A model generated the notes under the pieces. The model did no database searches. It was not told where the DNA came from and was given only the letters and a program-made list of their open reading frames with translations. Below are positions 16,677 through 42,443 of a stretch of 64,000 bases of DNA, one piece after another. A program made the position numbers and the translations under genes. The first letter of the stretch is position 1. Every line of letters starts with the position of its first letter. Source of the stretch: an uncultured bacterium (GTDB taxonomy: Bacteria > Patescibacteriota > JACMRA01); the NCBI GenBank assembly GCA_963704645.1, contig OY969926.1, forward strand, positions 1,120,001 to 1,184,000, read 5' to 3'.

Positions 16677-17957
16677 ATGAGTTCAACTGTTGAAAGTTTT
16701 GCGACATCAAAAAATCAGATTAGCAATTACAAAAATGTTCCACCAAATGAAGAAAAGGTTGAACGGGTGGAAAAATTTATTGCAAGATTACCTTTAAACG
16801 GAGAAGGGAATATTAATTTATATTTACTTGCTGTTGCAGTTTTGGATTATTCAATAAATGCTTCAGTTGAAGAAATTTACGAAGCATTGTTAAATGTTGG
16901 TGGAAATATTGTTTTTACAAAAGTTAAAGTTGAAAAAGGTATTTCATTAATAAAAGGGCAAGAGGAAAGAGTTAAATTGCAAAAAATTGAAAATCTTAGG
17001 AATTTTCTGAGCCAAATAATTTATCTAAATGGAAAAGGTGCAAAATTGGAATTAGTTAAAAGAAATACAGTTGAGGATATTAAATCAAAAGAACAGACTG
17101 AAGGGGAAATACTATTTAATGATTTTGTAGATTTTGCAATTAAAAACTCTGAGGAAATTATTGATACTTGTATAAGTAATGATGAAGAAGAGTTAGTTGT
17201 AAGCCGAGATTTAATTTCAGATTATTTTTATGATAATTTCTATTCTTCTAGTCCAGATCAAAACTTAGAAGTTTCAAAAGAAAAACAACTAGAATATAGA
17301 CGTTTGGCCGATAAAGCCCAAGAAATTAATTCTCACATAGAGTATGATGAACGAGGCTGGTATAAAATTAAAGGTGGTAAATTGTATGAATACAAAGAAG
17401 ATGTTATTGGCAGAGTTTATTTTAACGTAGACCCCATGTTTGGGCCCAAGTTATTAAACCAATTGCAAGTTTTATTAAGCCAAAGAGTTTCTACTTTTCA
17501 AGCTAAAATTCCAGAAAGCTATGAAGATAGAAAAGATAACTGCGTATTATATTTTACCAAACAAGATCAAGCAGTAGTACTTGAAATAGTTAACCAGATT
17601 GCAACAAGTAATCAATTTATATTTAGAAATGAACTAGGGAAAGGTCAGAAAAAAATTTTAAAAGGAATTGGTTTTGCCCAAGATGCAACTGAAGGACCAA
17701 GTAAAGATTTTAGGTATTATGAAACGAACAATGATAATATTACTTCTTTTGGTGGAAAACTATCTTTCATTTTTGGCGTAGTATTTAAAGCAGTAATAGC
17801 AAGGCAGCTGGATTGGCAAAAAGATAAGGAAACTATAAAAGAACTGTATAACAAGATTTGTAAAATTCATAATGTTGACCCTAAAGACCCAGCTTTTCAT
17901 ATACAAGACAACAATTTTGAAACAATAAGAAATTTTGCAGAACAAAACACAGCTTAA
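16677..17957 (+). CDS. Hypothetical protein with HopA1-like C-terminal domain
   Basis: RVYFNV...FQAKI...RKDNCVLYF...GIGFAQD...SFG pattern; start moved to ATG 16677 to avoid overlapping the NRAMP gene. Confidence 0.55.
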   Translation: MSSTVESFATSKNQISNYKNVPPNEEKVERVEKFIARLPLNGEGNINLYLLAVAVLDYSINASVEEIYEALLNVGGNIVFTKVKVEKGISLIKGQEERVKLQKIENLRNFLSQIIYLNGKGAKLELVKRNTVEDIKSKEQTEGEILFNDFVDFAIKNSEEIIDTCISNDEEELVVSRDLISDYFYDNFYSSSPDQNLEVSKEKQLEYRRLADKAQEINSHIEYDERGWYKIKGGKLYEYKEDVIGRVYFNVDPMFGPKLLNQLQVLLSQRVSTFQAKIPESYEDRKDNCVLYFTKQDQAVVLEIVNQIATSNQFIFRNELGKGQKKILKGIGFAQDATEGPSKDFRYYETNNDNITSFGGKLSFIFGVVFKAVIARQLDWQKDKETIKELYNKICKIHNVDPKDPAFHIQDNNFETIRNFAEQNTA

Positions 17958-17973
17958 TTCCCCCAACAACAAA

Positions 17974-17997
17974 GGCGATGATTAACATCGCCCCTAC
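17974..17997 (-). repeat. GTAG-type REP
   Basis: GTAGG-GGCGATG-ttaat-CATCGCC on the minus strand. Confidence 0.75.
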
Positions 17998-18016
17998 CCT
18001 AATTTTTAGAAATAAA

Positions 18017-18571
18017 TTAGCTGTTAGACTTTAAGTATTCTAAAATTGTGTCTGCATCGGAAATTTCGAATGGATCTGTTGGACAGTCATCAGAAAAACC
18101 TGGCTCTATGAACATTTTTGTAATTGTTCCATCTTCAACAACCATGGAGTATCTCCAAGATCTGTCACCAAAACCTAGATTGTTCTTTTTAACCAACATT
18201 CCCATTCCTCTTGTAAAATCTGCATTTCCATCTGGAAGTAAGAAAATGTTATTCACACCTTGTGCCTTTCCCCATTGGAACATTACGAAAGCATCGTTTA
18301 CACTTAAACAAATTACTTCATCAACACCTAAGTCTTTGAAAGCTTGGTAATTGTTTTCATAACCTGGTAAATGTGTGCTGGAACATGTCGGTGTGAAGGC
18401 ACCTGGTAAAGAGAATAAAACAATTTTCTTTCCTGCAAAAACATCGTTAGTAGATAAATCTTTCCAACTAAATTTGTTTGGACCTTCGGCATTTTCATCG
18501 CGTACACGGGTTTTAAAAGTTACTTGTGGCACTTTCTGGCCTTCAATATTTTTGTGATCTGAACTGGACAT
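18017..18571 (-). CDS. Peroxiredoxin, Prx5/type II
   Basis: LPGAFTPTCS, SVNDAFVM, PDGNADF, RSWRYSM. Confidence 0.95.
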   Translation of the reverse strand: MSSSDHKNIEGQKVPQVTFKTRVRDENAEGPNKFSWKDLSTNDVFAGKKIVLFSLPGAFTPTCSSTHLPGYENNYQAFKDLGVDEVICLSVNDAFVMFQWGKAQGVNNIFLLPDGNADFTRGMGMLVKKNNLGFGDRSWRYSMVVEDGTITKMFIEPGFSDDCPTDPFEISDADTILEYLKSNS

Positions 18572-18738
18572 ATATTTTAAATTTAATTTTTAATGGCAAT
18601 TTCTTACCTAATTAATTAACATTTTAGAGGCACTTTTTGTCAAAGAATTTACCCTATCTATACAGAGCAGTCCAAACTTTGAATATTAAAAAATATAGAC
18701 GTTTAGGCTTTTTACACTAATATTATTCTTGTACATTT

Positions 18739-19134
18739 ATGGAGAATTTTATAAAAAACTTTACAAACTGGTTTAGTTTAAAACCTGAGTTAGAATTCTT
18801 AAAAAGTTCTAAAAATTTTAATGAAAGAGAAATTTGGTGGACACATTTAGGCAGCAACTTAGGTTTTGAAATTGATGGTAAAACCTTACAATACACCAGG
18901 CCAGCACTGATACTTAAAAAAATTTCTACCCAAACAGCATTAATACTTCCGCTTACCTCAAAAGACAAGAATGGAAGTTGGTACATTCCAATAATTGTAG
19001 ATGAAAAAGAAGGAAGAGTAATTCTTTCTCAAAGCCGAACTATAGATAGTAAAAGATTAAAATCCAGACTTGTGACTATTAATGAAAGAGAATTTAAAAA
19101 TATAAAAGAAAAATTTATTCAATTTATTGGGTAA
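18739..19134 (+). CDS. PemK/MazF-family toxin; no protein antitoxin adjacent
   Basis: EIWW..LG.NLG.EIDGK...RPALILKK, LPLTS, LSQSRTIDSKRL. Confidence 0.85.
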   Translation: MENFIKNFTNWFSLKPELEFLKSSKNFNEREIWWTHLGSNLGFEIDGKTLQYTRPALILKKISTQTALILPLTSKDKNGSWYIPIIVDEKEGRVILSQSRTIDSKRLKSRLVTINEREFKNIKEKFIQFIG

Positions 19135-19182
19135 AAATTGTCCTCCCATTTCTGGGAGGTTAGCGACTGACGTCGAAATTAC
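19130..19182 (-). ncRNA. Putative ~50-nt convergent sRNA (candidate RNA antitoxin), locus 1
   Basis: Promoter TTGACA(19215-19210)-17-TATTAT; hairpins CGAC-GTCA-GTCG and CCTCCCA-GAAA-TGGGAGG, then a T-run. Confidence 0.55.
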
Positions 19183-19449
19183 TATGATAATAATACTTAC
19201 CATGACTTTTGTCAATTATGTATCCTTACTTTCCAATTTTATTTTCCCAATAAAATAACACAAAGGTAAACATTATCATGTTTCAGAATTACAGTAACAC
19301 CCTGATAAAGAAATATCAAGAAGAATTTTTACAACAAGTTAGTAGGTTTAAATCTTTTTGATTAATTTTCAACTGAAATAATTGCTAGATAATAACTAAA
19401 ATGTACAACCAGAGCAAACAAAGCCTTCAAATTATTTTGCTGAAAATAA

Positions 19450-20538
19450 CTACCCCGCCAAATTCTTAAGGTGGAACTTATTATAAGCCCAAGAGCCAAG
19501 CAATATTAGAAATACTGACGAGCCCATCAAAACTAATAGCTCTGGAATAATATCGCCCAAACCTTTGTTGAATTGCAAAACTTTTCTAAAAGCTTCTGTT
19601 GCATAAGCACTTGGAACTAGGCTGGTTAAACTTGGACCGCCAAAAATTTTAATCTCTGGAAAAGCCACGAAAGCTCCAGACAAAAAACCCAGAATTACCG
19701 AGGCCAGGGTTCCTATATTAGCTGCCAAATTGTCGTTTTTAAAGCTAGAAACTATAACCATGCCAAGACCAACTGTGAACAAATTAGTAGGAATTGAAAC
19801 CAATAAAGCCAAGCTTAATGCCGACCAACTAGCTGAATAACCAAAAACTAGAACAGCCCCAAAAAGCAAAATGGTTTGAAACAAAGCTATAACAGATTGA
19901 CTTAATAAATGCCCAACAATTATCTGCCAACTTTGAACTTTGGCTGTAAAATACCTAAATGTATAATTTCGCCTAATTTCGTTGCTCATTTGGAAAATTA
20001 TTTGAGGTAGTAAATTTAAAATTCCGTAAACAATTAAACCAGGAACAAGATAAGTAAAGGCCGTGGTTTTTTCAGAATTACTTACAGTAGAAACAACTTC
20101 TAATTTAGATTCATTTTGATAGAAAAACTGATTAGAATAACTGGAAATAATGCCAATAACAGCATTACTTTTAACACTGTAGGTATTGGCGTAAACTTTA
20201 ACTTTAGGCTGTGTAGAAAATTCTAGGAAGGCGTCCAACTTACCATCTTGCACCTTACTTTTACCTTCTTCCAAATTAGCAATTTCAGAGATTTCAAACT
20301 GGGAAACATTTTTAGGAGTTTTAATATTTTGCAATTCTTTAATAAAACTAGTCTGATACAAAGCCGAAGAATTTGATGAATAAGCTATTTTAAAAACCTG
20401 CTCACTGCTATTGGTGTTGAAAACCAAGGCAAATATTCCAATAAATACCACTGGTAAAATGAACACAATGGACCAGCTTTTAATGTCACGTAAAATATAT
20501 AGCAGGTTTTTTTTAGCAATTGATAATGTTTTATTCAT
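19450..20538 (-). CDS. ABC-2 type transporter permease
   Basis: N-terminal TM, extracytoplasmic loop, YLVPGL, five further TMs, FLSGAF. Confidence 0.88.
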   Translation of the reverse strand: MNKTLSIAKKNLLYILRDIKSWSIVFILPVVFIGIFALVFNTNSSEQVFKIAYSSNSSALYQTSFIKELQNIKTPKNVSQFEISEIANLEEGKSKVQDGKLDAFLEFSTQPKVKVYANTYSVKSNAVIGIISSYSNQFFYQNESKLEVVSTVSNSEKTTAFTYLVPGLIVYGILNLLPQIIFQMSNEIRRNYTFRYFTAKVQSWQIIVGHLLSQSVIALFQTILLFGAVLVFGYSASWSALSLALLVSIPTNLFTVGLGMVIVSSFKNDNLAANIGTLASVILGFLSGAFVAFPEIKIFGGPSLTSLVPSAYATEAFRKVLQFNKGLGDIIPELLVLMGSSVFLILLGSWAYNKFHLKNLAG

Positions 20539-20559
20539 AAGTATTTTATGTAAAAAGTT

Positions 20560-21498
20560 TTATTCACGAATTTCTTTACCGGTAAGAATTAAGAAAATAT
20601 CTTCCAAGGAAGGTTCTCTCATTTCCAAGTTATTAGTTTGAACATTTAAATTCGCTAGGGCAGGAAGTAATTCTTGCAACACAAAATTCGAATTTTTAGC
20701 CAGTAAACTAAAGCCTTTCTCTGAAAAAATAGCGGTTGGGAAAAGTAATTCTAAACCTAATATTTGTTCAGAATTTAAGCTATCTACTTTTACTTCAAGC
20801 AAAGTTCCGTTGCCATATTTTTCTTTTAATTCATCAACTGTGCCTTCAGCAATAATTAAACCATCATCTATAATAACTACATAATCACATAGTTTTTCTG
20901 CCTCTTCCAAATAGTGATCGGTTAAAATTACAGCCTTGTTTTGGTTTTTTAAGTTTTTAATGAAGTCCCATAAAAATATTCTAGATTGAGGGTCAATTCC
21001 CGGTGAAGGCTCGTCTAAAAATACCATACTTGGATTATGAATAATAGAAATGGCTAAGTTTAACCTTCTTTTATATCCCCCAGAAAGATTTATTGCCAAA
21101 GTATTCAATTCCGATTGTAGGTTTAGGCCAGCAATTAAAATATCTGTATTTTCTTTAATTTGTTGTTTGCTCATACCCTGTAAAGACCCTGTAAATAAAA
21201 GGTTTTCGTGCAAAGTTAATTTATCCCAAATTACAATTTCTTGAGGCATAACACCTATTTTGCTTCTAAAATTACTTGGAACAAATTTAAAGGTTTCTCC
21301 TTCAATTTCAATCTCTCCAGAAGTTGGCGTAATTTGCCCTGAAAGCATTTTAATTATTGTAGATTTACCAGATCCGTTTGGACCAAGCAATCCCAGAATT
21401 TGTCCTTGTCTAATTTGTAAACTAACATTTTTCACTGCTAGCTTAGAATTTTTGCCATCATTAAAACTTCTACTTAAATTGCGGGCATTTATTTGCAT
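20560..21498 (-). CDS. ABC transporter ATP-binding protein
   Basis: GPNGSGKS, LSGGYKRR, FLDEP, EPSLEDIF. Confidence 0.93.
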   Translation of the reverse strand: MQINARNLSRSFNDGKNSKLAVKNVSLQIRQGQILGLLGPNGSGKSTIIKMLSGQITPTSGEIEIEGETFKFVPSNFRSKIGVMPQEIVIWDKLTLHENLLFTGSLQGMSKQQIKENTDILIAGLNLQSELNTLAINLSGGYKRRLNLAISIIHNPSMVFLDEPSPGIDPQSRIFLWDFIKNLKNQNKAVILTDHYLEEAEKLCDYVVIIDDGLIIAEGTVDELKEKYGNGTLLEVKVDSLNSEQILGLELLFPTAIFSEKGFSLLAKNSNFVLQELLPALANLNVQTNNLEMREPSLEDIFLILTGKEIRE

Positions 21499-21548
21499 AA
21501 AGCCACTAACAATAGTTTTGAATTATTTGTAAACCCAACTTTAAAAGA

Positions 21549-22112
21549 TTATTCTGGTTTTGGTGCAGGTGCTTTGATGGTTTCATTAACCGGCTTATAA
21601 TTTTGTAAACCTGCAGGAACTGGAGCATCAATAGTTGAACCAGGAGGGTTAACTTTTATTGAAATATTATTATTTAGATTCACTTGCTCATCTTTACTAA
21701 GTTCAACATTAAGATTGCCTTGTATTGGAAGCGGCACAACTTGTTGAGTACAGGTTTGAGCTTCAGAACTAGGAAGTTTGGAATCTAAATTTAAAGTTAA
21801 AATAATTTTATCACCTAGCTTAGCTAAATTGTAAGATTTCAAAGATACACAGCCATTTTGGCCATAAACTTTACCGTTATAACTGATTGATTTACTTTGG
21901 GTTGAATATTTAAAAAATATATCTTCCTTCTTAACATCTATCTGTACGTTTTCAGTTTTGCTAGCTGCTGTTTTGGGTTGGGTAAAAGTATAGTATGCAA
22001 ACAAACCACATACCAACAATATTACACCAAGAATTACTAAAATAATTGTTGTTCTATTACGCCCTGTAATTAAACTAGCCTGATTGTTAAAATTTGGGGT
22101 TAAAATATTCAT
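21549..22112 (-). CDS. Hypothetical membrane-anchored protein
   Basis: Single N-terminal TM, paired Cys, Pro-rich tail. Confidence 0.65.
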   Translation of the reverse strand: MNILTPNFNNQASLITGRNRTTIILVILGVILLVCGLFAYYTFTQPKTAASKTENVQIDVKKEDIFFKYSTQSKSISYNGKVYGQNGCVSLKSYNLAKLGDKIILTLNLDSKLPSSEAQTCTQQVVPLPIQGNLNVELSKDEQVNLNNNISIKVNPPGSTIDAPVPAGLQNYKPVNETIKAPAPKPE

Positions 22113-22295
22113 ATTAAAGTTTTCTGCAATTGTTATTAGAGATTAATTTATGTTAGTTTAATATAGTTTCTTTAAATAAGCAAACAATTCAGGAGCAAGG
22201 ATAATATTTCGTAATTCTCTAAATGTGTGTTCCATAAATGCTTATCATAAAGATGAAAAAATAACTACTAAAAAATATTCGCTGGAAGCTGTTAT

Positions 22296-23564
22296 TTATA
22301 ATATATTTTCACGAACCTCATTTACCATTTGCATTTCTTCATTTGTAGGAATAATCCAAACTTGTATTGTAGAATTTTCGGAAGAAATTTTGACTGAACT
22401 TTTACATTCATCAGAATTTGCATTAACTTGAAGGTCTAAATTAAGCCCAAGAAAAGCAAATCTTTCACAAATTTTTTGACGAATTAAATGCGAACCTTCC
22501 CCAACTGCTCCACTAAATATTATAGCTTCAGCACCATCTAAAACCGATATATAAGCTCCTAACTTCTCTATAATTCTTTCCACAAAAAAGTCTAAAGCAA
22601 ATTTAGCCTGCGGTTTAATATTATAGTCTTGAATGATAGTAACTAAATTGCTAGTATAACCCGATATTCCTAAAATACCAGATTTTTTATTTAAAATTGT
22701 AGCTGTTTCCTGCCAGCTTAGGTTTTCAGCTTGATTATAAAAACTTAAAGCTTCCAAATTTACTTCCCCAGAACGTGTTCCCATTGGCAAACCTTCGTTC
22801 GGGCTAAAACCCATGCTAGTTTGATAACTTTCACCATCTTTTATAGCGCAAAGGCTAGAACCACTTCCAAGATGTAAAGTAACAATTTTGCCCTTAGACA
22901 ATCCATTATTTTTACTTAATGTTTTCTCGCTCGAGACATCGCTAACACCCTTGGCGGATACTAGCTGATCTACCAAGTTACCACTAAACTTGTTCTTGTA
23001 ATATGTCTGCGATAGATATTTGTGGGAAAGTCCGTGAAACCCGAAGCGTTTTATTCCGCACTCTTTATAAGCTTTAATGGGAAGAGCGTAAATCTGATTA
23101 ATTTCTGGTAAACTAGTGTGAAAAGCAGTATCAAAAACTGCTATTTGTTTAAGTTTGGTGAAGTTTTTTTGTAATAGTTTAATTTCAGCTATAGCTGGCG
23201 GATTATGTAACGGAGCAATTTGATTTAACTTTTCCAATTCAACAATTACATTTTCATCAATTTGGGTTGAATTAGTAAATTTATTTCCCCCGTGAACAAT
23301 TCTATGAATAACCGTTAATTCTAAAAAATTATCTACAATTTTTAATTCTTGAATTAAATTTAGAACTAAAATAGAACCTTCTAAATATTGCGATGAAGAA
23401 AGAGGGCGAGTTTCAACTTTATTATTAAAAGTAAACACAAACTGATACTCATTGGCCATGTAATTAGTTAATTTGCCAAACAGAATTGGAGAGTTGGAAT
23501 TAGTAGGATAAAGGCTAAATTTTAAAGAAGAAGATCCTTTGTTTAAAGCTAAATAGTTGGGCAT
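22296..23564 (-). CDS. ackA: Acetate kinase
   Basis: LN.GSSSLKF, HRIVHGG, APLHNP, AVFDTAFH, RFGFHGLSH, HLGSGSS, IPTNEE. Confidence 0.95.
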   Translation of the reverse strand: MPNYLALNKGSSSLKFSLYPTNSNSPILFGKLTNYMANEYQFVFTFNNKVETRPLSSSQYLEGSILVLNLIQELKIVDNFLELTVIHRIVHGGNKFTNSTQIDENVIVELEKLNQIAPLHNPPAIAEIKLLQKNFTKLKQIAVFDTAFHTSLPEINQIYALPIKAYKECGIKRFGFHGLSHKYLSQTYYKNKFSGNLVDQLVSAKGVSDVSSEKTLSKNNGLSKGKIVTLHLGSGSSLCAIKDGESYQTSMGFSPNEGLPMGTRSGEVNLEALSFYNQAENLSWQETATILNKKSGILGISGYTSNLVTIIQDYNIKPQAKFALDFFVERIIEKLGAYISVLDGAEAIIFSGAVGEGSHLIRQKICERFAFLGLNLDLQVNANSDECKSSVKISSENSTIQVWIIPTNEEMQMVNEVRENIL

Positions 23565-23658
23565 AGGTTGATTTTAATGAAGTGTATAAGTCTGAGCTTG
23601 AATTTGTAACTAAATTAAATAGTGTTGACATAAATTATAACAAATGTTCTAATTAGCT

Positions 23659-23709
23659 TACAAATTGCCGTTAGGTACGACCTCTCAGAAATGAGAGGGT
23701 TAATTTTTG
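23659..23709 (+). ncRNA. Putative ~50-nt convergent sRNA (candidate RNA antitoxin), locus 2
   Basis: Promoter TTGACA(23625-23630)-17-TCTAAT with extended TG; hairpins TGCC-GTTA-GGTA and CCTCTCA-GAAA-TGAGAGG, then a T-run. Confidence 0.55.
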
Positions 23710-24095
23710 CCCAAAATAATCTGAGACATTTTTCTTTTAAGAATCAATAATTCGTTATCACTAATTTTTCCAAGTTTGTAGCTTAATCTTTGTACATCTA
23801 TAGCTTTCATCTGAGAAAGTAAAACTGATATATTTTTCTGACGCATTTTTAAATTGAAATAATATTTATTATCTTTAATTTTAGAACTTGTTGGCAAACC
23901 ATAGAATAGTTTATGGTTGAACTTTCGTATTATCACAACTGGACGTAAAAACTGGTCACCTTTTCCGTTTTCCTCATGACCTATATTTTCTCCTAAATGA
24001 CACCACCATATCTCCGCTTCTCTAAAAACCGGGTATTTTTCATTTTCATGTAATTTTGGTTTTAACTTAAACCAGTCCAAAAAGTTTTTAATCAT
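23700..24095 (-). CDS. PemK/MazF-family toxin; no protein antitoxin adjacent
   Basis: EIWWCHLGENIGHEENGKG..FLRPVVIIRK, LPTSS, LSQMKAIDVQRL. Confidence 0.85.
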   Translation of the reverse strand: MIKNFLDWFKLKPKLHENEKYPVFREAEIWWCHLGENIGHEENGKGDQFLRPVVIIRKFNHKLFYGLPTSSKIKDNKYYFNLKMRQKNISVLLSQMKAIDVQRLSYKLGKISDNELLILKRKMSQIILGKN

Positions 24096-24209
24096 ACTTT
24101 TGTTTATATTTTATGCTTAATAAGCTACAATTTTTAGGCAAGAAAAAAGACCAATGTATTTTTGTACAAAGGCCTATTTAAAATATTACTCAATCGAGAA
24201 TGGGCATGT

Positions 24210-24893
24210 TTAGAAACCAGCTGTAGGGCTTCCAAAAATTTCCACTTCCACTTTTTTATCTCTCAAATATACCAGACTGTCTGGATACTTGAAATCGATG
24301 GTTAGCGGGAAATTTCCCAAACCTTGGTAATCACCAATAACTATTTTCCGCTCCCCCTTCTTCTCACCTAAACTTAGGCCGTAAGCTTCGTCAGTTTTAG
24401 GACCTTTGGTGGTTACTTGAAACTGGAGTTTTAGACCAGTTGCAGTTTTCGCAATTGAATGACACTCAATTGCAGACTGCAATTTAGGCTCACCATTTTC
24501 ATCAAGCCAAAAGCTTAGAAGAGTAGGATAGCCATTTGGCATTATCATTTTCACATGAATAAGCTTTGTTCCAGGCCAGCTGACTGACACTTCATAAGCT
24601 CTTCTGTCTGAAGAAACAAATGTCTCTTTTTTTACTGTTTGCTGGCCATATTTTGACTGTTGGTTCGCAAGCCAATTTTTAGTTGCACTAGCCATATCTT
24701 TCTCAAAGTCATCAAAACTTAGCTGATAAACTAGCTTTGGTGAGGTTAGCTCGATCTGCTGTACAGGATTTTCTGTGTTGGTGGGTTGTGTTAAAGTTTG
24801 CGTAACTCCACAAGCATTTAAACTAACAACACAAAAAACGCTGACAAGTAGAAAAGTCACAAACTGCAAAACTTTTTTTAATGAGCGAGTCAT
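24210..24893 (-). CDS. Orphan lipoprotein
   Basis: Signal peptide with LNAC lipobox; GGAG SD; own promoter and terminator. Confidence 0.7.
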   Translation of the reverse strand: MTRSLKKVLQFVTFLLVSVFCVVSLNACGVTQTLTQPTNTENPVQQIELTSPKLVYQLSFDDFEKDMASATKNWLANQQSKYGQQTVKKETFVSSDRRAYEVSVSWPGTKLIHVKMIMPNGYPTLLSFWLDENGEPKLQSAIECHSIAKTATGLKLQFQVTTKGPKTDEAYGLSLGEKKGERKIVIGDYQGLGNFPLTIDFKYPDSLVYLRDKKVEVEIFGSPTAGF

Positions 24894-24997
24894 CTTGAAA
24901 TCTCCATCAATTATAAGTGAATTATAGTTTTAAACTATACTTATATAAAAGCACATATTTTGGGTTAAAGCAAGCTTGTTTTTCTTTTATTTTCCCA

Positions 24998-26344
24998 CTA
25001 TATTCCCATGTTGTTATAATGTGTGCCGAAAGATAATATATTAATTTGCCCGTCATAGCCTTGGTTCATACAAAGTCTATTTTTATCGTTAAGTCTGGCT
25101 GACATAAAACAATTTGCCCCATTTTTGATAAATTCTAAGTTTAGGCCTTTGTAATTAGAGTAATGGCTAACAAAAGCCTCCAGATTTCCACCACATTGTG
25201 CTATAAGTTTAAAAATATCTGTTATTTTCTGTACATTTTTGTAGTTGTTTAGAACCGACATTGAGTTATTTTTATAAGCCTTGTTTTCAATTTTATAATT
25301 AATACCTAGAGATGTTAAATTGTGTTTTAGTAGTTCTATACCAGTGTAATTAGCGTAGTCTTGCTGTGTTTCATAAGTAGTGCTTTCCGCTTCTTGATAA
25401 GGCTGATATTGATATTCGTACTCATAATTTTGCTCTGGCTCAGAGCTTTCATATCCTCGTTCAAAACTCTCAGGCTCTTCTATTAAACTTTCCTCTTGAT
25501 CATCTAAATTATCATCTGCAGAGGTTTCACGATCAAGCAACCAATAGGTATTATTTATAATTTGATGTAATACAGACTCATTGCTTTTAAAACCATCAAA
25601 CATCACAGCAGGATTATTTTGTATTGGAACTAAAATATCGCTTTGGAAATTATACCCAAAAGCTGTTTGCAATGTTGCTCTAGTGTCATTTAATGTAGTA
25701 CTGATAAAGCCTGTAGTAAGATTTACATTTTTTGCTCTGCTAGATTTGGCAAAACCAGTTTGTTTAACTCTATCCATAGTGTTATTTTCCAGCTTAATCA
25801 CGCCCATTTTATCTAAATTTATTAGCGAAAGCCCTAGTGATGAATGTAAACGTACCAGCTCTATTAATAAATTTTCAGTGTCCCAATATCCTTCACCGGA
25901 ATCAGGGTTAACCATAAACAATGAACCAAGTCTTGAATTTCTTAAATTTTTAACGTCATTCAAAACGTACAAGCTTACTATCATTAAATAAATACATTTA
26001 TAGTTTATACTTAGAATGTTTTCAGTGTCACCTTGGTCTATTGAATTAGCAATTTCATCCATAACCTCTTTAGTAAGATTTATGCAATCTTCAAGAAAGT
26101 CACCTGGCCCGCCTTGGCTACTCCATTTACCAGATAAAATACCTGATAATAATAAGTTTTCAATTTCATCTAATATATAATATGTCTGATATCTTGTGTC
26201 AAAATTTTCAAAGTAATTAATTAAGTCTAAGCCTTCTTTTCTCAATGCCCATCTTTCTGTTGAATTAAGATTTTTCTCTAAGAAAAATAATATCCCTTTA
26301 TATACATCTGATCTTGTATCTTCAAAATAACTGTCTCTTTCCAT
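24998..26344 (-). CDS. Hypothetical protein with acidic linker and C-terminal YoeB/RelE-like domain
   Basis: C-terminus SARLNDKNRL...INILSFGTHY resembles Txe/YoeB; E/Y/Q-rich linker. Confidence 0.55.
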   Translation of the reverse strand: MERDSYFEDTRSDVYKGILFFLEKNLNSTERWALRKEGLDLINYFENFDTRYQTYYILDEIENLLLSGILSGKWSSQGGPGDFLEDCINLTKEVMDEIANSIDQGDTENILSINYKCIYLMIVSLYVLNDVKNLRNSRLGSLFMVNPDSGEGYWDTENLLIELVRLHSSLGLSLINLDKMGVIKLENNTMDRVKQTGFAKSSRAKNVNLTTGFISTTLNDTRATLQTAFGYNFQSDILVPIQNNPAVMFDGFKSNESVLHQIINNTYWLLDRETSADDNLDDQEESLIEEPESFERGYESSEPEQNYEYEYQYQPYQEAESTTYETQQDYANYTGIELLKHNLTSLGINYKIENKAYKNNSMSVLNNYKNVQKITDIFKLIAQCGGNLEAFVSHYSNYKGLNLEFIKNGANCFMSARLNDKNRLCMNQGYDGQINILSFGTHYNNMGI

Positions 26345-29123: not shown

Positions 29124-29678
29124 GTGATTGGATCAAATTTGTTTAATGCTGGCGAGTGTGAAGTTTTAGATTCTGAAAGGTTAATTTTGAGACCTTTAGA
29201 AGTTGATGATTTACAGGCAATTATGGCTTATGCTACAGACCCCGAGACTGTAAAGTGGTTAAGCATTGGCGTTCAAACTGAAGAGCAGGTTTTGTTTTGG
29301 CTTACCAAACAAATTTTATCTTACAGCCAACCCAGTTCAAGTCTAACTTGGGCAATCTGCTTGCAAGAAACTGGTGAATGCATTGGTTGTATTGAGTTAG
29401 TTTCTGACGGCACTATTGGCTATGCATCCGCCCAAAAATATTGGGGTAATGGATACATGACCGAAGCTGTTAGAATTGTAACATCTTTCGCTTTTAAATT
29501 TGAATTTATAGATTGCCTAAAAATTCCTGTCTACCAACCCAACATTGCATCGCAGAAAGTTGCTCTAAACAATGGGTTTACACAAGGCTCACTCATTCCT
29601 AACCACACACTAAAAAATGGCGAGTCTTTATCTGCCTATGTTTTCAGATTAACCAAAGAGGAATATTTCTCAAAATAA
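29124..29678 (+). CDS. GNAT acetyltransferase, RimJ/RimL family
   Basis: SERLILRPL, IGY...YWGNGYMTEA, NIASQKV...GF; GTG start with GGAG SD. Confidence 0.88.
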   Translation: MIGSNLFNAGECEVLDSERLILRPLEVDDLQAIMAYATDPETVKWLSIGVQTEEQVLFWLTKQILSYSQPSSSLTWAICLQETGECIGCIELVSDGTIGYASAQKYWGNGYMTEAVRIVTSFAFKFEFIDCLKIPVYQPNIASQKVALNNGFTQGSLIPNHTLKNGESLSAYVFRLTKEEYFSK

Positions 29679-29754
29679 AAACAACCCCTAGAATATTATT
29701 TTCTGGGGGAATATTTTTTGGTAAATAATTCTTTATTAAAAGCAATAATTTCAA

Positions 29755-31389
29755 CTAGCCTAAAAACCTTTTATTTGGTAATGAGTTTTGAGTAAGATTG
29801 TTCGGATTCAAAGTTGAATTATCAACATTTTGAGAAGAGTTTGGAATATTTGGAGTTGCAATAGTTTCATTTTGATTAGAAACATCTACTACATTTTCGC
29901 CACTTATTACAGCGTCCGCTTCTACATGTTCTATATTTTCGTAAGGCCAAACAGGTTGAGACGAATTATTTTGAACAGGGTTTGAAAATGTAATATCTGG
30001 CAAAACTTCATCTGAAGAGCTAGGTTGTAAATTAGAGGAATTGAATTGAGAAGTTTGATCAAATGAAGTTGGAGAAGTATTAAAACTGCTAGTATTTGAT
30101 GACAGTATTTCATCATTTAACCCCGTCTCTCTTGGGTAATTATCTAAGCTAAATTCATCTTCAGGTTTTTCCAAATTAGAAACAGGAATAGAATTCTGTA
30201 TCAGTTTAGGTTGCTCAGTTTGGCTTAGCATACTTTTAAACTGTCCATCTAGGGTTGGGTTTGCAATATTCGTATTAATAGTTGGCGCGGGCTGTTTATT
30301 GCTTAATAACTTCTGGTTTTTTTGTTTGGCAAAGTTAACAATATTAAGCTTTTCTAAAATCAACATAACAATGTTTATTAATAACAAAACACCAGAAAAA
30401 ATAAGAGCCGGTAAAATTAAATTGAAAGACAAACGAAGCAAATTCCAAGCTAATAAATTAACAATTTCGCTGGTTGCAAAACCTGGTAAAAGTAGCAGGT
30501 TAAGACTGGAACTTAAATAGGCAAAACCACCCGTAACCAATAGCCAAAAAACACATAAACTTAAAGTGCTAGTAGAAATAAACCAAGAAAGTCTACGTAA
30601 ATAAGCCAACATTTTGCGGTTGGAAAACGCCACCAAAGCTAAATTTGCAGCAATTAGAAGAGCAAATACTGCAAAGTAGACTAAGGCTTTGCTTCTAAAA
30701 TCTAGCAACTGATCACGTGCCCAATTCAACCTGCTTAATGTAACTTGATTGGCTCCAGAAATTATAGATTCTGCCCTTACTTGATTACTTAGCGGGGAAA
30801 TTGGGTTATTTTTTAATACATCATCTAAGCTATTAAAACCATTTTGCTGTGCAACACCTAATACTTCAGAAAGCTTTTTTGAACCATCTTTAACCTCAGC
30901 TGGTAAACAAAAAGTTTTGCTGGAATCGTATCCCTCAGTTTTTAATTTAGCTAAATCTTCGGTTGAGCAAGTTTCAATATTTGTGTTACTTTCTTTGGCA
31001 ATTTTACTAGCCTGTTCGTCTATACCCTCCCTTACAACTTTTTCTATATCTGAGGTTGGTAAATAAAAATTTAAAATATTTGAGTCTCCTTGTAGCCACC
31101 TTGTAACGTAATCTATATTAGTTTCTGATACATTTTTAAGCCAATCTGGAGTTACTAGTTTATTTACAATCGGCCCAATTACTAAGTATCCAATGGCCTG
31201 ACTAGAGCCAGGAGTATTTTCATAATTCTTCTTAAGTTGGTCGTTAAGTTTAGAATAAAAGTTTTCTTGGTTTAAAGAATCTTTATGAATACTGGCGTTT
31301 GGCAATGTAAAAGCAATACTAAAAGCCACAATTAATAGTGGTAAAATTGCCACAATAAAACCCTGAAGAAATGTTTGTAATAAACGCAT
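29755..31389 (-). CDS. Hypothetical multi-pass membrane protein with disordered C-tail
   Basis: N-terminal TM, large loop with Cys pair, three TMs, N/S/Q-rich tail. Confidence 0.7.
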   Translation of the reverse strand: MRLLQTFLQGFIVAILPLLIVAFSIAFTLPNASIHKDSLNQENFYSKLNDQLKKNYENTPGSSQAIGYLVIGPIVNKLVTPDWLKNVSETNIDYVTRWLQGDSNILNFYLPTSDIEKVVREGIDEQASKIAKESNTNIETCSTEDLAKLKTEGYDSSKTFCLPAEVKDGSKKLSEVLGVAQQNGFNSLDDVLKNNPISPLSNQVRAESIISGANQVTLSRLNWARDQLLDFRSKALVYFAVFALLIAANLALVAFSNRKMLAYLRRLSWFISTSTLSLCVFWLLVTGGFAYLSSSLNLLLLPGFATSEIVNLLAWNLLRLSFNLILPALIFSGVLLLINIVMLILEKLNIVNFAKQKNQKLLSNKQPAPTINTNIANPTLDGQFKSMLSQTEQPKLIQNSIPVSNLEKPEDEFSLDNYPRETGLNDEILSSNTSSFNTSPTSFDQTSQFNSSNLQPSSSDEVLPDITFSNPVQNNSSQPVWPYENIEHVEADAVISGENVVDVSNQNETIATPNIPNSSQNVDNSTLNPNNLTQNSLPNKRFLG

Positions 31390-42166: not shown

Positions 42167-42443
42167 ATTTTTGGTTTTTAAAACTATCAGTTTTTGACCT
42201 CTCCAAAGCAGCTTCAAACTCTTCACCAGTTTCAAACATTTTGTTTTTGTTTTTAAGCTTTCTACCTAAACTTCCCTGTATTTTAGACATTTTATTTTCT
42301 ATATTTTGAATATTGTAAGTATCCTGTTTTTGACCATCTTCAAAAATATGCAAATACATTCCTGGTTTTAAATCTAATTTATTCAATAAATCTACTGGCA
42401 AAGTAACTTGATTCTGTGATGAAACTTTTAGTTTAAAGGTCAT
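42159..42443 (-). CDS. AbrB/MazE-type antitoxin (VapB-like)
   Basis: KVSSQNQVTLP..L...LDLKPG swapped-hairpin motif; palindromes (AGTTATTT/AAATAACT) over the promoter. Confidence 0.85.
   Translation of the reverse strand: MTFKLKVSSQNQVTLPVDLLNKLDLKPGMYLHIFEDGQKQDTYNIQNIENKMSKIQGSLGRKLKNKNKMFETGEEFEAALERSKTDSFKNQKYD

Follow-up and report, generated by a model that had tools for sequence, protein, structure and literature searches.

A convergent two-hairpin small RNA accompanies a MazF/PemK toxin subfamily in Patescibacteria and is its likely antitoxin

What keeps a MazF/PemK toxin in check when no antitoxin gene lies beside it? The question is raised by two toxin genes, T1 and T2, in a stretch of 64,000 nucleotides (nt) from an uncultured bacterium (contig OY969926.1, positions 1,120,001 to 1,184,000; hereafter the window), whose genome consists of one contig of 1.27 Mb, 87% complete and of Patescibacteria type, and holds about eight copies or fragments of the toxin. 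An earlier note on this DNA had pointed to a structured RNA predicted downstream of each toxin on the opposite strand, and had proposed that it neutralises the toxin. We found that this RNA unit is real, conserved and covarying, and that it is tied specifically to this PemK/MazF subfamily, far beyond chance; most likely it is an antitoxin which replaces the protein antidote of the toxin. The two loci are composed as follows (positions are those of the window).

18739 to 19134, forward strand: toxin T1, 131 amino acids (aa), PemK/MazF subfamily with the N-terminal helix KNFxxWFxLKP; stop codon at 19132-19134
19215 to 19187, reverse strand: promoter of small RNA 1, TTGACA-17-TATTAT, 11 of 12 consensus matches
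19180 to 19133, reverse strand: small RNA 1, about 48 nt, predicted ends, start about 7 nt past the -10 box
19175 to 19164, reverse strand: hairpin 1 of small RNA 1, CGAC GTCA GTCG
19163 to 19160, reverse strand: linker of small RNA 1
19159 to 19142, reverse strand: hairpin 2 (terminator) of small RNA 1, CCTCCCA GAAA TGGGAGG
19137 to 19133, reverse strand: U-run of small RNA 1, overlapping the T1 stop codon
23625 to 23653, forward strand: promoter of small RNA 2, TTGACA-17-TCTAAT, read from the sequence, score 11.5
23660 to 23709, forward strand: small RNA 2, about 48 nt, predicted start
23666 to 23677, forward strand: hairpin 1 of small RNA 2, TGCC GTTA GGTA
23678 to 23680, forward strand: linker of small RNA 2
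23681 to 23698, forward strand: hairpin 2 (terminator) of small RNA 2, CCTCTCA GAAA TGAGAGG
23704 to 23708, forward strand: U-run of small RNA 2, abutting the T2 stop codon
23700 to 24095, reverse strand: toxin T2, 131 aa, paralogue of T1; stop codon at 23700-23702

Both proteins matched PF02452 (PemK_toxin) well above its gathering cut-off of 23.1 bits, T1 with 45.7 bits (E 8.3e-12) and T2 with 47.4 bits (E 2.4e-12), and they are 40% identical to each other (51/127). A profile made from 27 family members matched B. subtilis EndoA/MazF and S. aureus MazF in the PDB with E of about 3e-7, and the AlphaFold2 model of T1 (predicted local distance difference test score 87.9) showed the MazF barrel with a helix at residues 8-21 and a C-terminal helix. 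The best Foldseek matches of the toxin model were likewise S. aureus and B. subtilis MazF (E about 6e-6, template modelling score 0.63-0.75), and the N-terminal helix at residues 8-21 is an addition to the MazF fold which is specific to this subfamily. In the family alignment R54 is invariant and a Thr/Ser is mostly kept; these are the counterparts of R25 and T48 of B. subtilis MazF, which we take to be the catalytic residues of that enzyme. We predict from sequence that T1 and T2 are MazF/PemK-fold endoribonucleases which probably share their catalytic residues with MazF. The toxin had no match of any kind in a PADLOC search, and hence none to its type III toxin model. The subfamily comprises 579 cluster representatives at E <=1e-30, and homologues are present in 19 of 61 related genomes, mostly of the same family (16/25). 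Some longer homologues appear to carry fused partner domains (HNH, GNAT, YdjC); these are heterogeneous and probably represent gene-call fusions, and we did not retain them as candidate partners.

On re-reading the sequence we found the near-consensus promoters, the coordinates and the layout given by the earlier note to be correct in every detail, and the C-G to U-A change that it had described between the two hairpins 2 is indeed compensatory. The promoter of small RNA 1 ranks first among 32 promoter-like sites in 17500-25500; the search rule requires the second base of the -10 hexamer to be A, and hence the promoter of small RNA 2 is not listed. Small RNA 1 folds with -17.4 kcal/mol (z-score -3.95 against shuffles) and small RNA 2 with -15.3 kcal/mol (z-score -3.79). 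Both hairpins 2 were called terminator-like solely on the strand opposite to the toxin, and no toxin-strand terminator was called after T1 or T2, in keeping with the earlier statement that hairpin and U-run do not belong to the toxin's own terminator. A plain shared terminator is excluded by the promoter, by hairpin 1 and by the conservation of both. We also discarded the idea of a peptide encoded by the small RNA, as the AUG in the GAAA loop of the T1 and T2 units is missing from most homologues. The toxin strand of small RNA gene 2 holds a promoter-like site (TTGTAA-18-TATAAT with an upstream TG, 23634-23663, reverse strand); it precedes an acetate kinase-like gene (22296-23564, reverse strand), which both this site and read-through from T2 could feed.

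Is the unit a peculiarity of these two loci? The structure and promoter, described by the earlier note from one pair of toxins, proved to be conserved behind homologues. Toxin and RNA searches covered the 61 related genomes, and linkage was counted at the 57 homologue loci having sufficient flank (47 intact, 10 degenerate). A strict promoter pattern (TTGAC, any nucleotide, a spacer of 16-18 nt, then [TG]A...[TA]) was found downstream of the toxin on the antisense strand at 45 of these loci (38/47 intact, 7/10 degenerate) and on the sense strand at none, as compared with 77 of 1080 random 175-nt windows from the same loci; at several of the 12 misses, T2 among them, the unit can be recognised by eye, its -10 box or spacing deviating slightly. 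Reading the opposite strand of the homologues revealed the two-hairpin RNA unit almost everywhere. Promoter scores and terminator counts were taken at 27 loci. The RNA-side promoter has TTGACA and a spacer of exactly 17 nt in 24 of them, with a mean score of 11.1, while the region upstream of the toxin scored 8.85 vs about 8.5 for random DNA; a terminator within 200 nt was noticed on the toxin strand at 3/27 loci and on the antisense strand at 24/27.

Covariation was examined on 22 units aligned with MAFFT, which is blind to structure. The two-hairpin structure pairs in 93.2% of the cells, as against 69.8% when shuffled and 42-54% when the partners are slid, and 10 of the 11 base pairs carry compensatory changes with both sides altered. 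None of 500 shuffles reached 93.2%, a count which is not a probability as the 22 units are kin; the variety of pair types is still large. RNAalifold recovered identical helices on this alignment. A covariance model (R1) was built from the same 22 units and run on whole genomes. In the window it found only units 1 (56.6 bits, E 4.8e-14) and 2 (51.5 bits), plus one match at E 0.8; in the whole genome it found the toxin-side units, two further toxin-less units and a few weak terminator-like matches. The weak matches, e.g. at 454876, 1204006 and 232915 of the genome and at 29657-29719 of the window, are without promoter and hairpin 1. In ordinary terminators here the 5' arm is rich in pyrimidines, the 3' arm in purines, and the loop is GAAA or GCAA (e.g. 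CCTCCTA GCAA TAGGAGG), and the low-scoring matches arise because this is also the style of hairpin 2. No match to Rfam 15, including its pemK motif, was obtained at the RNA positions (E <=10 on the two loci, E <=0.1 on 18 related loci), so that the unit belongs to none of the known Rfam families.

Parsing of hairpins in 35 units showed which features are kept. Tetraloops of hairpin 2 include GAAA (8/35) and GCAA (6/35), those of hairpin 1 GUUA, GUAA and UUCG, all of them very stable. A U precedes hairpin 1 in 29 units and a C follows it in 25, and the gap from the -10 box to hairpin 1 is fixed at 11-12 nt in 25/35. A variant of the RNA from other lineages of the phylum has an invariant CxGAG junction, and its hosts include metagenome-assembled genomes (MAGs) labelled Nomurabacteria, Saccharibacteria, Uhrbacteria and 'Patescibacteria group'; model R1 finds this variant poorly and MAFFT misregisters its hairpin 1, so its spread is known from toxin-anchored inspection only. 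In a Gracilibacteria MAG (locus L060, 477-552) both hairpins stand behind a homologue and are followed by an A-run in place of the U-run; this lineage may read TGA as a sense codon, and the stop-codon call at L060 may be wrong. With a small-alignment query we also noticed toxin and RNA unit at one locus of a viral contig in IMG/VR, a search in which T2 alone gave no match.

How does the unit behave when the toxin decays? Strong matches of the covariance model (E <=4e-6) numbered 46 across the related genomes: 30 abut a toxin match convergently, one abuts a 54-aa toxin remnant, one lies at a contig end and 14 are toxin-less, one of the last resembling a plain terminator. The toxin-less RNAs keep intact promoter and pairing, and stand next to DUF1877, DUF1828/1829, Schlafen AlbA_2 or a methyltransferase. 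They retain remnants of the final toxin codons, and so look like modules that lost their toxin. At the site syntenic to T1 in a genome of the same genus, by a peroxiredoxin gene, the RNA is kept and the toxin coding sequence is gone save for the last codons under the U-run. In the genome of the window itself (contig coordinates C1) the toxin is split in two at 465 kb (C1:465235-465668) and truncated at 512 kb (C1:512297-512569), both with a high-scoring RNA kept, and at 387 kb (C1:387200-387634) it has lost its stop codon and the frame continues through the RNA unit, which, as at the other two copies, is itself intact. About 4-5 kb before the start of the window lies a tandem array (C1:1114952-1116273) of two toxins on the reverse strand, with near-identical duplicate upstream regions and each with its own convergent small RNA, followed by two toxin-less RNA units with promoters, the last of which abuts the 3' end of a convergent gene. 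Thus toxins decay or vanish and the RNA stays, which is the pattern expected of an antitoxin. Beside a toxin-less RNA in a related genome (L066, 830-1388) there are two short open reading frames (ORFs) which, by reading of their sequence, look like an antitoxin of Phd/YefM type and a toxin of YoeB/RelE type; it seems that toxin-antitoxin modules occur in clusters.

Could a protein antitoxin have been overlooked? The earlier note had seen no antitoxin ORF beside either toxin, and we likewise found no candidate operonic antitoxin ORF of at least 30 aa next to T1 or T2, nor an antitoxin gene of MazE/PemI, AbrB or RHH type beside the homologue copies examined. The possibility of an antitoxin encoded elsewhere in the genome, which the note had itself raised, found no support, as only two PF04014 (MazE/AbrB) proteins exceed the cut-off and each directly adjoins a PIN toxin, which makes them parts of VapBC pairs:

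C1:943508 to 944159, own genome: VapBC-type pair, MazE/AbrB antitoxin directly followed by a PIN-domain toxin
C1:529101 to 529765, own genome: VapBC-type pair of the same composition

A weak MazE/AbrB match below the cut-off (E 9.4e-4) was noticed at 42336-42431 of the window, reverse strand, in a 98-aa open frame. Since the RNA is tied to the subfamily, has no Rfam match and is met with no MazE-type antitoxin, an RNA antitoxin is the best reading of these loci, and to this extent the proposal of the earlier note stands.

Is the arrangement confined to Patescibacteria? Using T2 as tblastn query we found full-length relatives, N-terminal helix included, on plasmid pVir of C. jejuni strain 81-176 and on the similar plasmid pCj2, in prophage CJIE4 (between the terminase and portal genes), on Helicobacter plasmids and on a Nitratiruptor plasmid, whose toxin is 42% identical to T2. 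The pVir toxin (134 aa, 30634-31038 of NC_008770), which is the sole annotated toxin of that plasmid, aligned over its full length with the subfamily of the window (hhalign probability 99.6%). None of these Campylobacterota plasmid and prophage toxins has an annotated antitoxin neighbour, and all of them have a convergent downstream unit made of an extended -10 promoter of Campylobacterota type (with the box TGnTATAAT on pVir and in CJIE4) and 2-3 hairpins, with a GC hairpin abutting the toxin stop codon. These RNAs fold with z-scores of -2.4 to -3.8, and the two Helicobacter RNAs differ by compensatory changes. On pVir the best promoter-like site opposite to the toxin is the convergent one just downstream, where the unit occupies about 31040-31130 of the opposite strand. 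The Campylobacterota RNAs have no clear sequence likeness to the Patescibacteria RNA and also differ in hairpin number; between the phyla the convergent, stop-abutting geometry is conserved while RNA sequence and fold are not. Furthermore, on pCJ419 (L089, 488-995) and four other small Campylobacter plasmids the pVir RNA region stands in the same convergent geometry behind an unrelated 142-aa ORF; the pCJ419 copy is 92.9% identical over 99 nt, -10 box included. This ORF neither matches Pfam nor resembles the toxin family; it may be a further toxin that makes use of the pVir RNA, or the locus may be a toxin-less decoy, and the finding also fits a position-dependent role of the RNA. Passages of PMC10470494 and PMC7826846, which cite Shen et al. 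2016, state that on pVir of C. jejuni 81-176 a type I system has the antisense small RNA CjrA as its antitoxin; small RNAs and start sites of this plasmid are also reported by Dugar et al. 2013.

By what mechanism would the RNA act? We give an even chance to the reading that each locus is a two-gene toxin-antitoxin module whose RNA acts by cis-antisense pairing in a 3' overlap. The toxin gene, predicted to code for a MazF/PemK endoribonuclease, has neither a recognisable strong promoter nor a terminator of its own. The antitoxin would be the small RNA (about 48 nt), whose near-consensus promoter lies 50-80 nt beyond the toxin stop codon; it would be transcribed toward the toxin and terminated by hairpin and U-run atop that stop codon. 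The toxin transcript would read through the RNA gene and so acquire a 3' untranslated region perfectly complementary to an abundant small RNA; the duplex might then be cut by RNase III, or the toxin mRNA be otherwise destabilised or silenced, following the logic of the Gram-positive 3'-overlapping type I systems. Transcription of either RNA, toxicity, rescue and the pairing mechanism are all parts of this picture that we infer. The earlier note had dismissed antisense control on the ground that the overlap is too short; it counted the overlap with the coding sequence only, and since the toxin strand is without a terminator in 24/27 loci, the toxin transcript should run through the whole RNA gene and so be complementary to the small RNA along its entire length. 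We prefer cis-antisense pairing because the toxin has no terminator, because RNase III is encoded in the same genome, because the geometry is kept across phyla and because of the report on CjrA; moreover, a geometry that is kept while RNA sequence and fold change fits such pairing better than a model in which a conserved protein recognises one fixed RNA. Several points weigh on the other side. Stable tetraloops lend themselves poorly to the loop-loop kissing with which antisense pairing usually begins, the conserved motifs (the U, the C, the gap of 11-12 nt, CxGAG) exceed what pairing alone needs, and a block of synthesis cannot neutralise a stable enzyme already made. The 14/46 toxin-less RNAs with intact promoter and pairing are easier to understand if the RNA acts in trans, and the identification of CjpT with the pVir PemK homologue and of CjrA with its convergent unit is a tentative one of our own.

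The toxins ToxN and AbiQ, relatives of the MazF fold, are inhibited by RNA, and in a similar, type III-like way the folded RNA might bind the MazF-type dimer directly, e.g. by placing its single-stranded ends, rich in A and U, in the substrate groove, the convergent position serving merely compactness or regulation. We hold this to be unlikely, and equally so its particular form in which a single-copy RNA of about 48 nt, with two hairpins and a terminator of its own, neutralises a true MazF RNase and belongs neither to the repeat-based type III nor to classical type I. Besides the precedent of ToxN and AbiQ, it would account well for sequence motifs conserved at unpaired and junction positions with fixed spacing, for tetraloops as stable as those of a scaffold RNA, for the toxin-less RNAs that keep promoter and pairing, including the two in tandem by the toxin array, and for the co-occurrence of the subfamily-specific N-terminal helix with an RNA partner. 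Against it, RNA sequence and hairpin number vary from phylum to phylum, unlike the geometry and unlike the toxin, which is conserved from end to end; the pVir RNA region is found behind the unrelated 142-aa ORF as well, and the loci show neither the repeats nor the upstream position of all known type III loci. Two analyses meant to separate the models were also made. Pairing of the RNA with the ribosome-binding region of the toxin was no better for cognate than for non-cognate combinations (-15.9 vs -16.4 kcal/mol, 22 pairs), and this lack of cognate-specific complementarity to the toxin 5' region speaks for binding to the protein. The idea that hairpin 1 determines specificity and evolves together with the toxin found no support, as hairpins 1 and 2 track toxin identity alike (14 clean parses out of 35); at toxin identity of at least 45% the identity of hairpin 1 is 0.79 vs 0.75 for the terminator hairpin, so that within toxin clades it is no better conserved than a generic terminator hairpin, which counts against direct binding. 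Taken together, these tests on toxin 5' pairing and hairpin 1 conservation did not favour protein binding. The direct neutralisation of the RNase put forward by the earlier note is thus less favoured than cis-antisense pairing, owing to the geometry and the missing toxin terminator.

Two further explanations do without an antitoxin. The unit may be an independent small RNA or a promoter-terminator cassette, acting as an insulator that shields neighbouring genes from read-through, by transcriptional interference or as a trans regulator, and merely travel with a toxin that is controlled otherwise; we regard this as improbable, somewhat more so than direct binding. That about 30% of the strong matches (14/46) are toxin-less and lie by unrelated genes, that hairpin 2 is built like the ordinary terminators of these genomes, as the weak matches show, and that read-through from T2 would otherwise reach the acetate kinase gene are all in its favour. 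On the other hand, the association with the toxin is far above background and strictly oriented, every toxin of the tandem array has its own unit, the last-codon remnants suggest a former toxin at the toxin-less copies, and neither the adjacent ORFs nor the MazE-type proteins of the genome offered another antitoxin candidate. A domesticated PemK-like protein for RNA processing or binding, with the small RNA as its substrate or cofactor in a ribonucleoprotein serving neither addiction nor defence, would agree with the joint conservation of toxin and RNA and with a helix added to the MazF fold. We consider it very improbable: the distribution is patchy (19/61 related genomes), paralogues are numerous, copies are duplicated in tandem and pseudogenes are common, and the locations on plasmids, in a prophage and on a viral contig are marks of selfish or defence modules rather than of housekeeping. 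The residues aligning with the Arg and Thr of B. subtilis MazF, presumably catalytic, are also kept.

MazF/PemK toxins are textbook type II toxins, and a regular small RNA partner of so large a subfamily, if true, would change the annotation of 'orphan' toxins. Patescibacteria, whose RNA repertoire is almost unexplored, would gain an easily recognised non-coding RNA family, linked to a system on virulence plasmids and prophages of Campylobacter that has drawn little notice. Should Shen et al. 2016 show CjpT to be the pVir PemK homologue, the loci of the window would be very distant members of that system, and the structure and distribution of the RNA would still be new. Were the RNA instead to inhibit the enzyme directly, it would represent a new RNA-antitoxin architecture, spread across Patescibacteria and, in RNAs of different shape, also over plasmids and prophages of Campylobacterota, and the toxin-less copies would be trans-protecting decoys. 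Either way the loci offer a compact test case for antisense vs protein-binding inhibition of one toxin fold.

How, finally, does the module compare with known systems? The Rfam pemK motif is reportedly a structured RNA associated with pemK, upstream of the gene and on the same strand; it resembles the RNA of the window in its link to pemK genes but differs in that there is no covariance match between them. The main text of Weinberg et al. 2017, to which the motif is attributed, does not mention it. Type III, a description of which is given in PMC8860590, is another relative in kind. Its systems ToxIN, AbiQ/antiQ, CptIN and TenpIN likewise combine an endoribonuclease of related fold with a small structured RNA and reside on mobile DNA. 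Their RNAs, however, consist of repeats in tandem that precede the toxin within its operon and are processed by the toxin, whereas the RNA of the window is single-copy, downstream and convergent with a promoter and terminator of its own, and its toxin belongs to PF02452 proper. This copy number and placement of the RNA recur at every toxin-linked locus, and the sole tandem RNAs are the two toxin-less units opposite to the toxin array. With type II MazEF/PemIK the module shares the toxin fold and probably the catalytic residues, but no MazE/PemI gene adjoins the copies examined, and the toxin carries the extra N-terminal helix.

The 3'-overlapping type I systems of Gram-positive bacteria, i.e. 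txpA/RatA, bsrG/SR4 and RNA I/RNA II of pAD1 par, have small membrane peptides as toxins. They resemble the module in the convergent RNA pairing with the 3' end of the toxin mRNA, which we propose here, in the strong antitoxin promoter and in the availability of RNase III. They differ in their longer antitoxins, in that both RNAs are self-terminated and in the toxin, which in the window is a 131-aa MazF-fold RNase without a toxin-strand terminator; the soluble RNase fold thus departs from the membrane toxin of type I, a trait that is typical, not universal. A literature search found no MazF-family toxin with a convergent small RNA apart from citations of Shen et al. 2016, a paper which the toxin-antitoxin reviews that it covered do not mention, and it found neither such RNAs in Patescibacteria nor MazF toxins with RNA antitoxins in general. 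The CjrA/CjpT pair of pVir is the nearest counterpart that we propose, as it would likewise consist of a toxin of this subfamily without a neighbouring antitoxin gene and a convergent downstream unit with hairpins; the pVir RNA differs in having about 80-90 nt and three hairpins vs about 48 nt and two hairpins in the window, and no sequence likeness. An experimental precedent thus probably exists in Campylobacter, while the spread of the RNA across Patescibacteria and its covariance model are, as far as our searches show, new.

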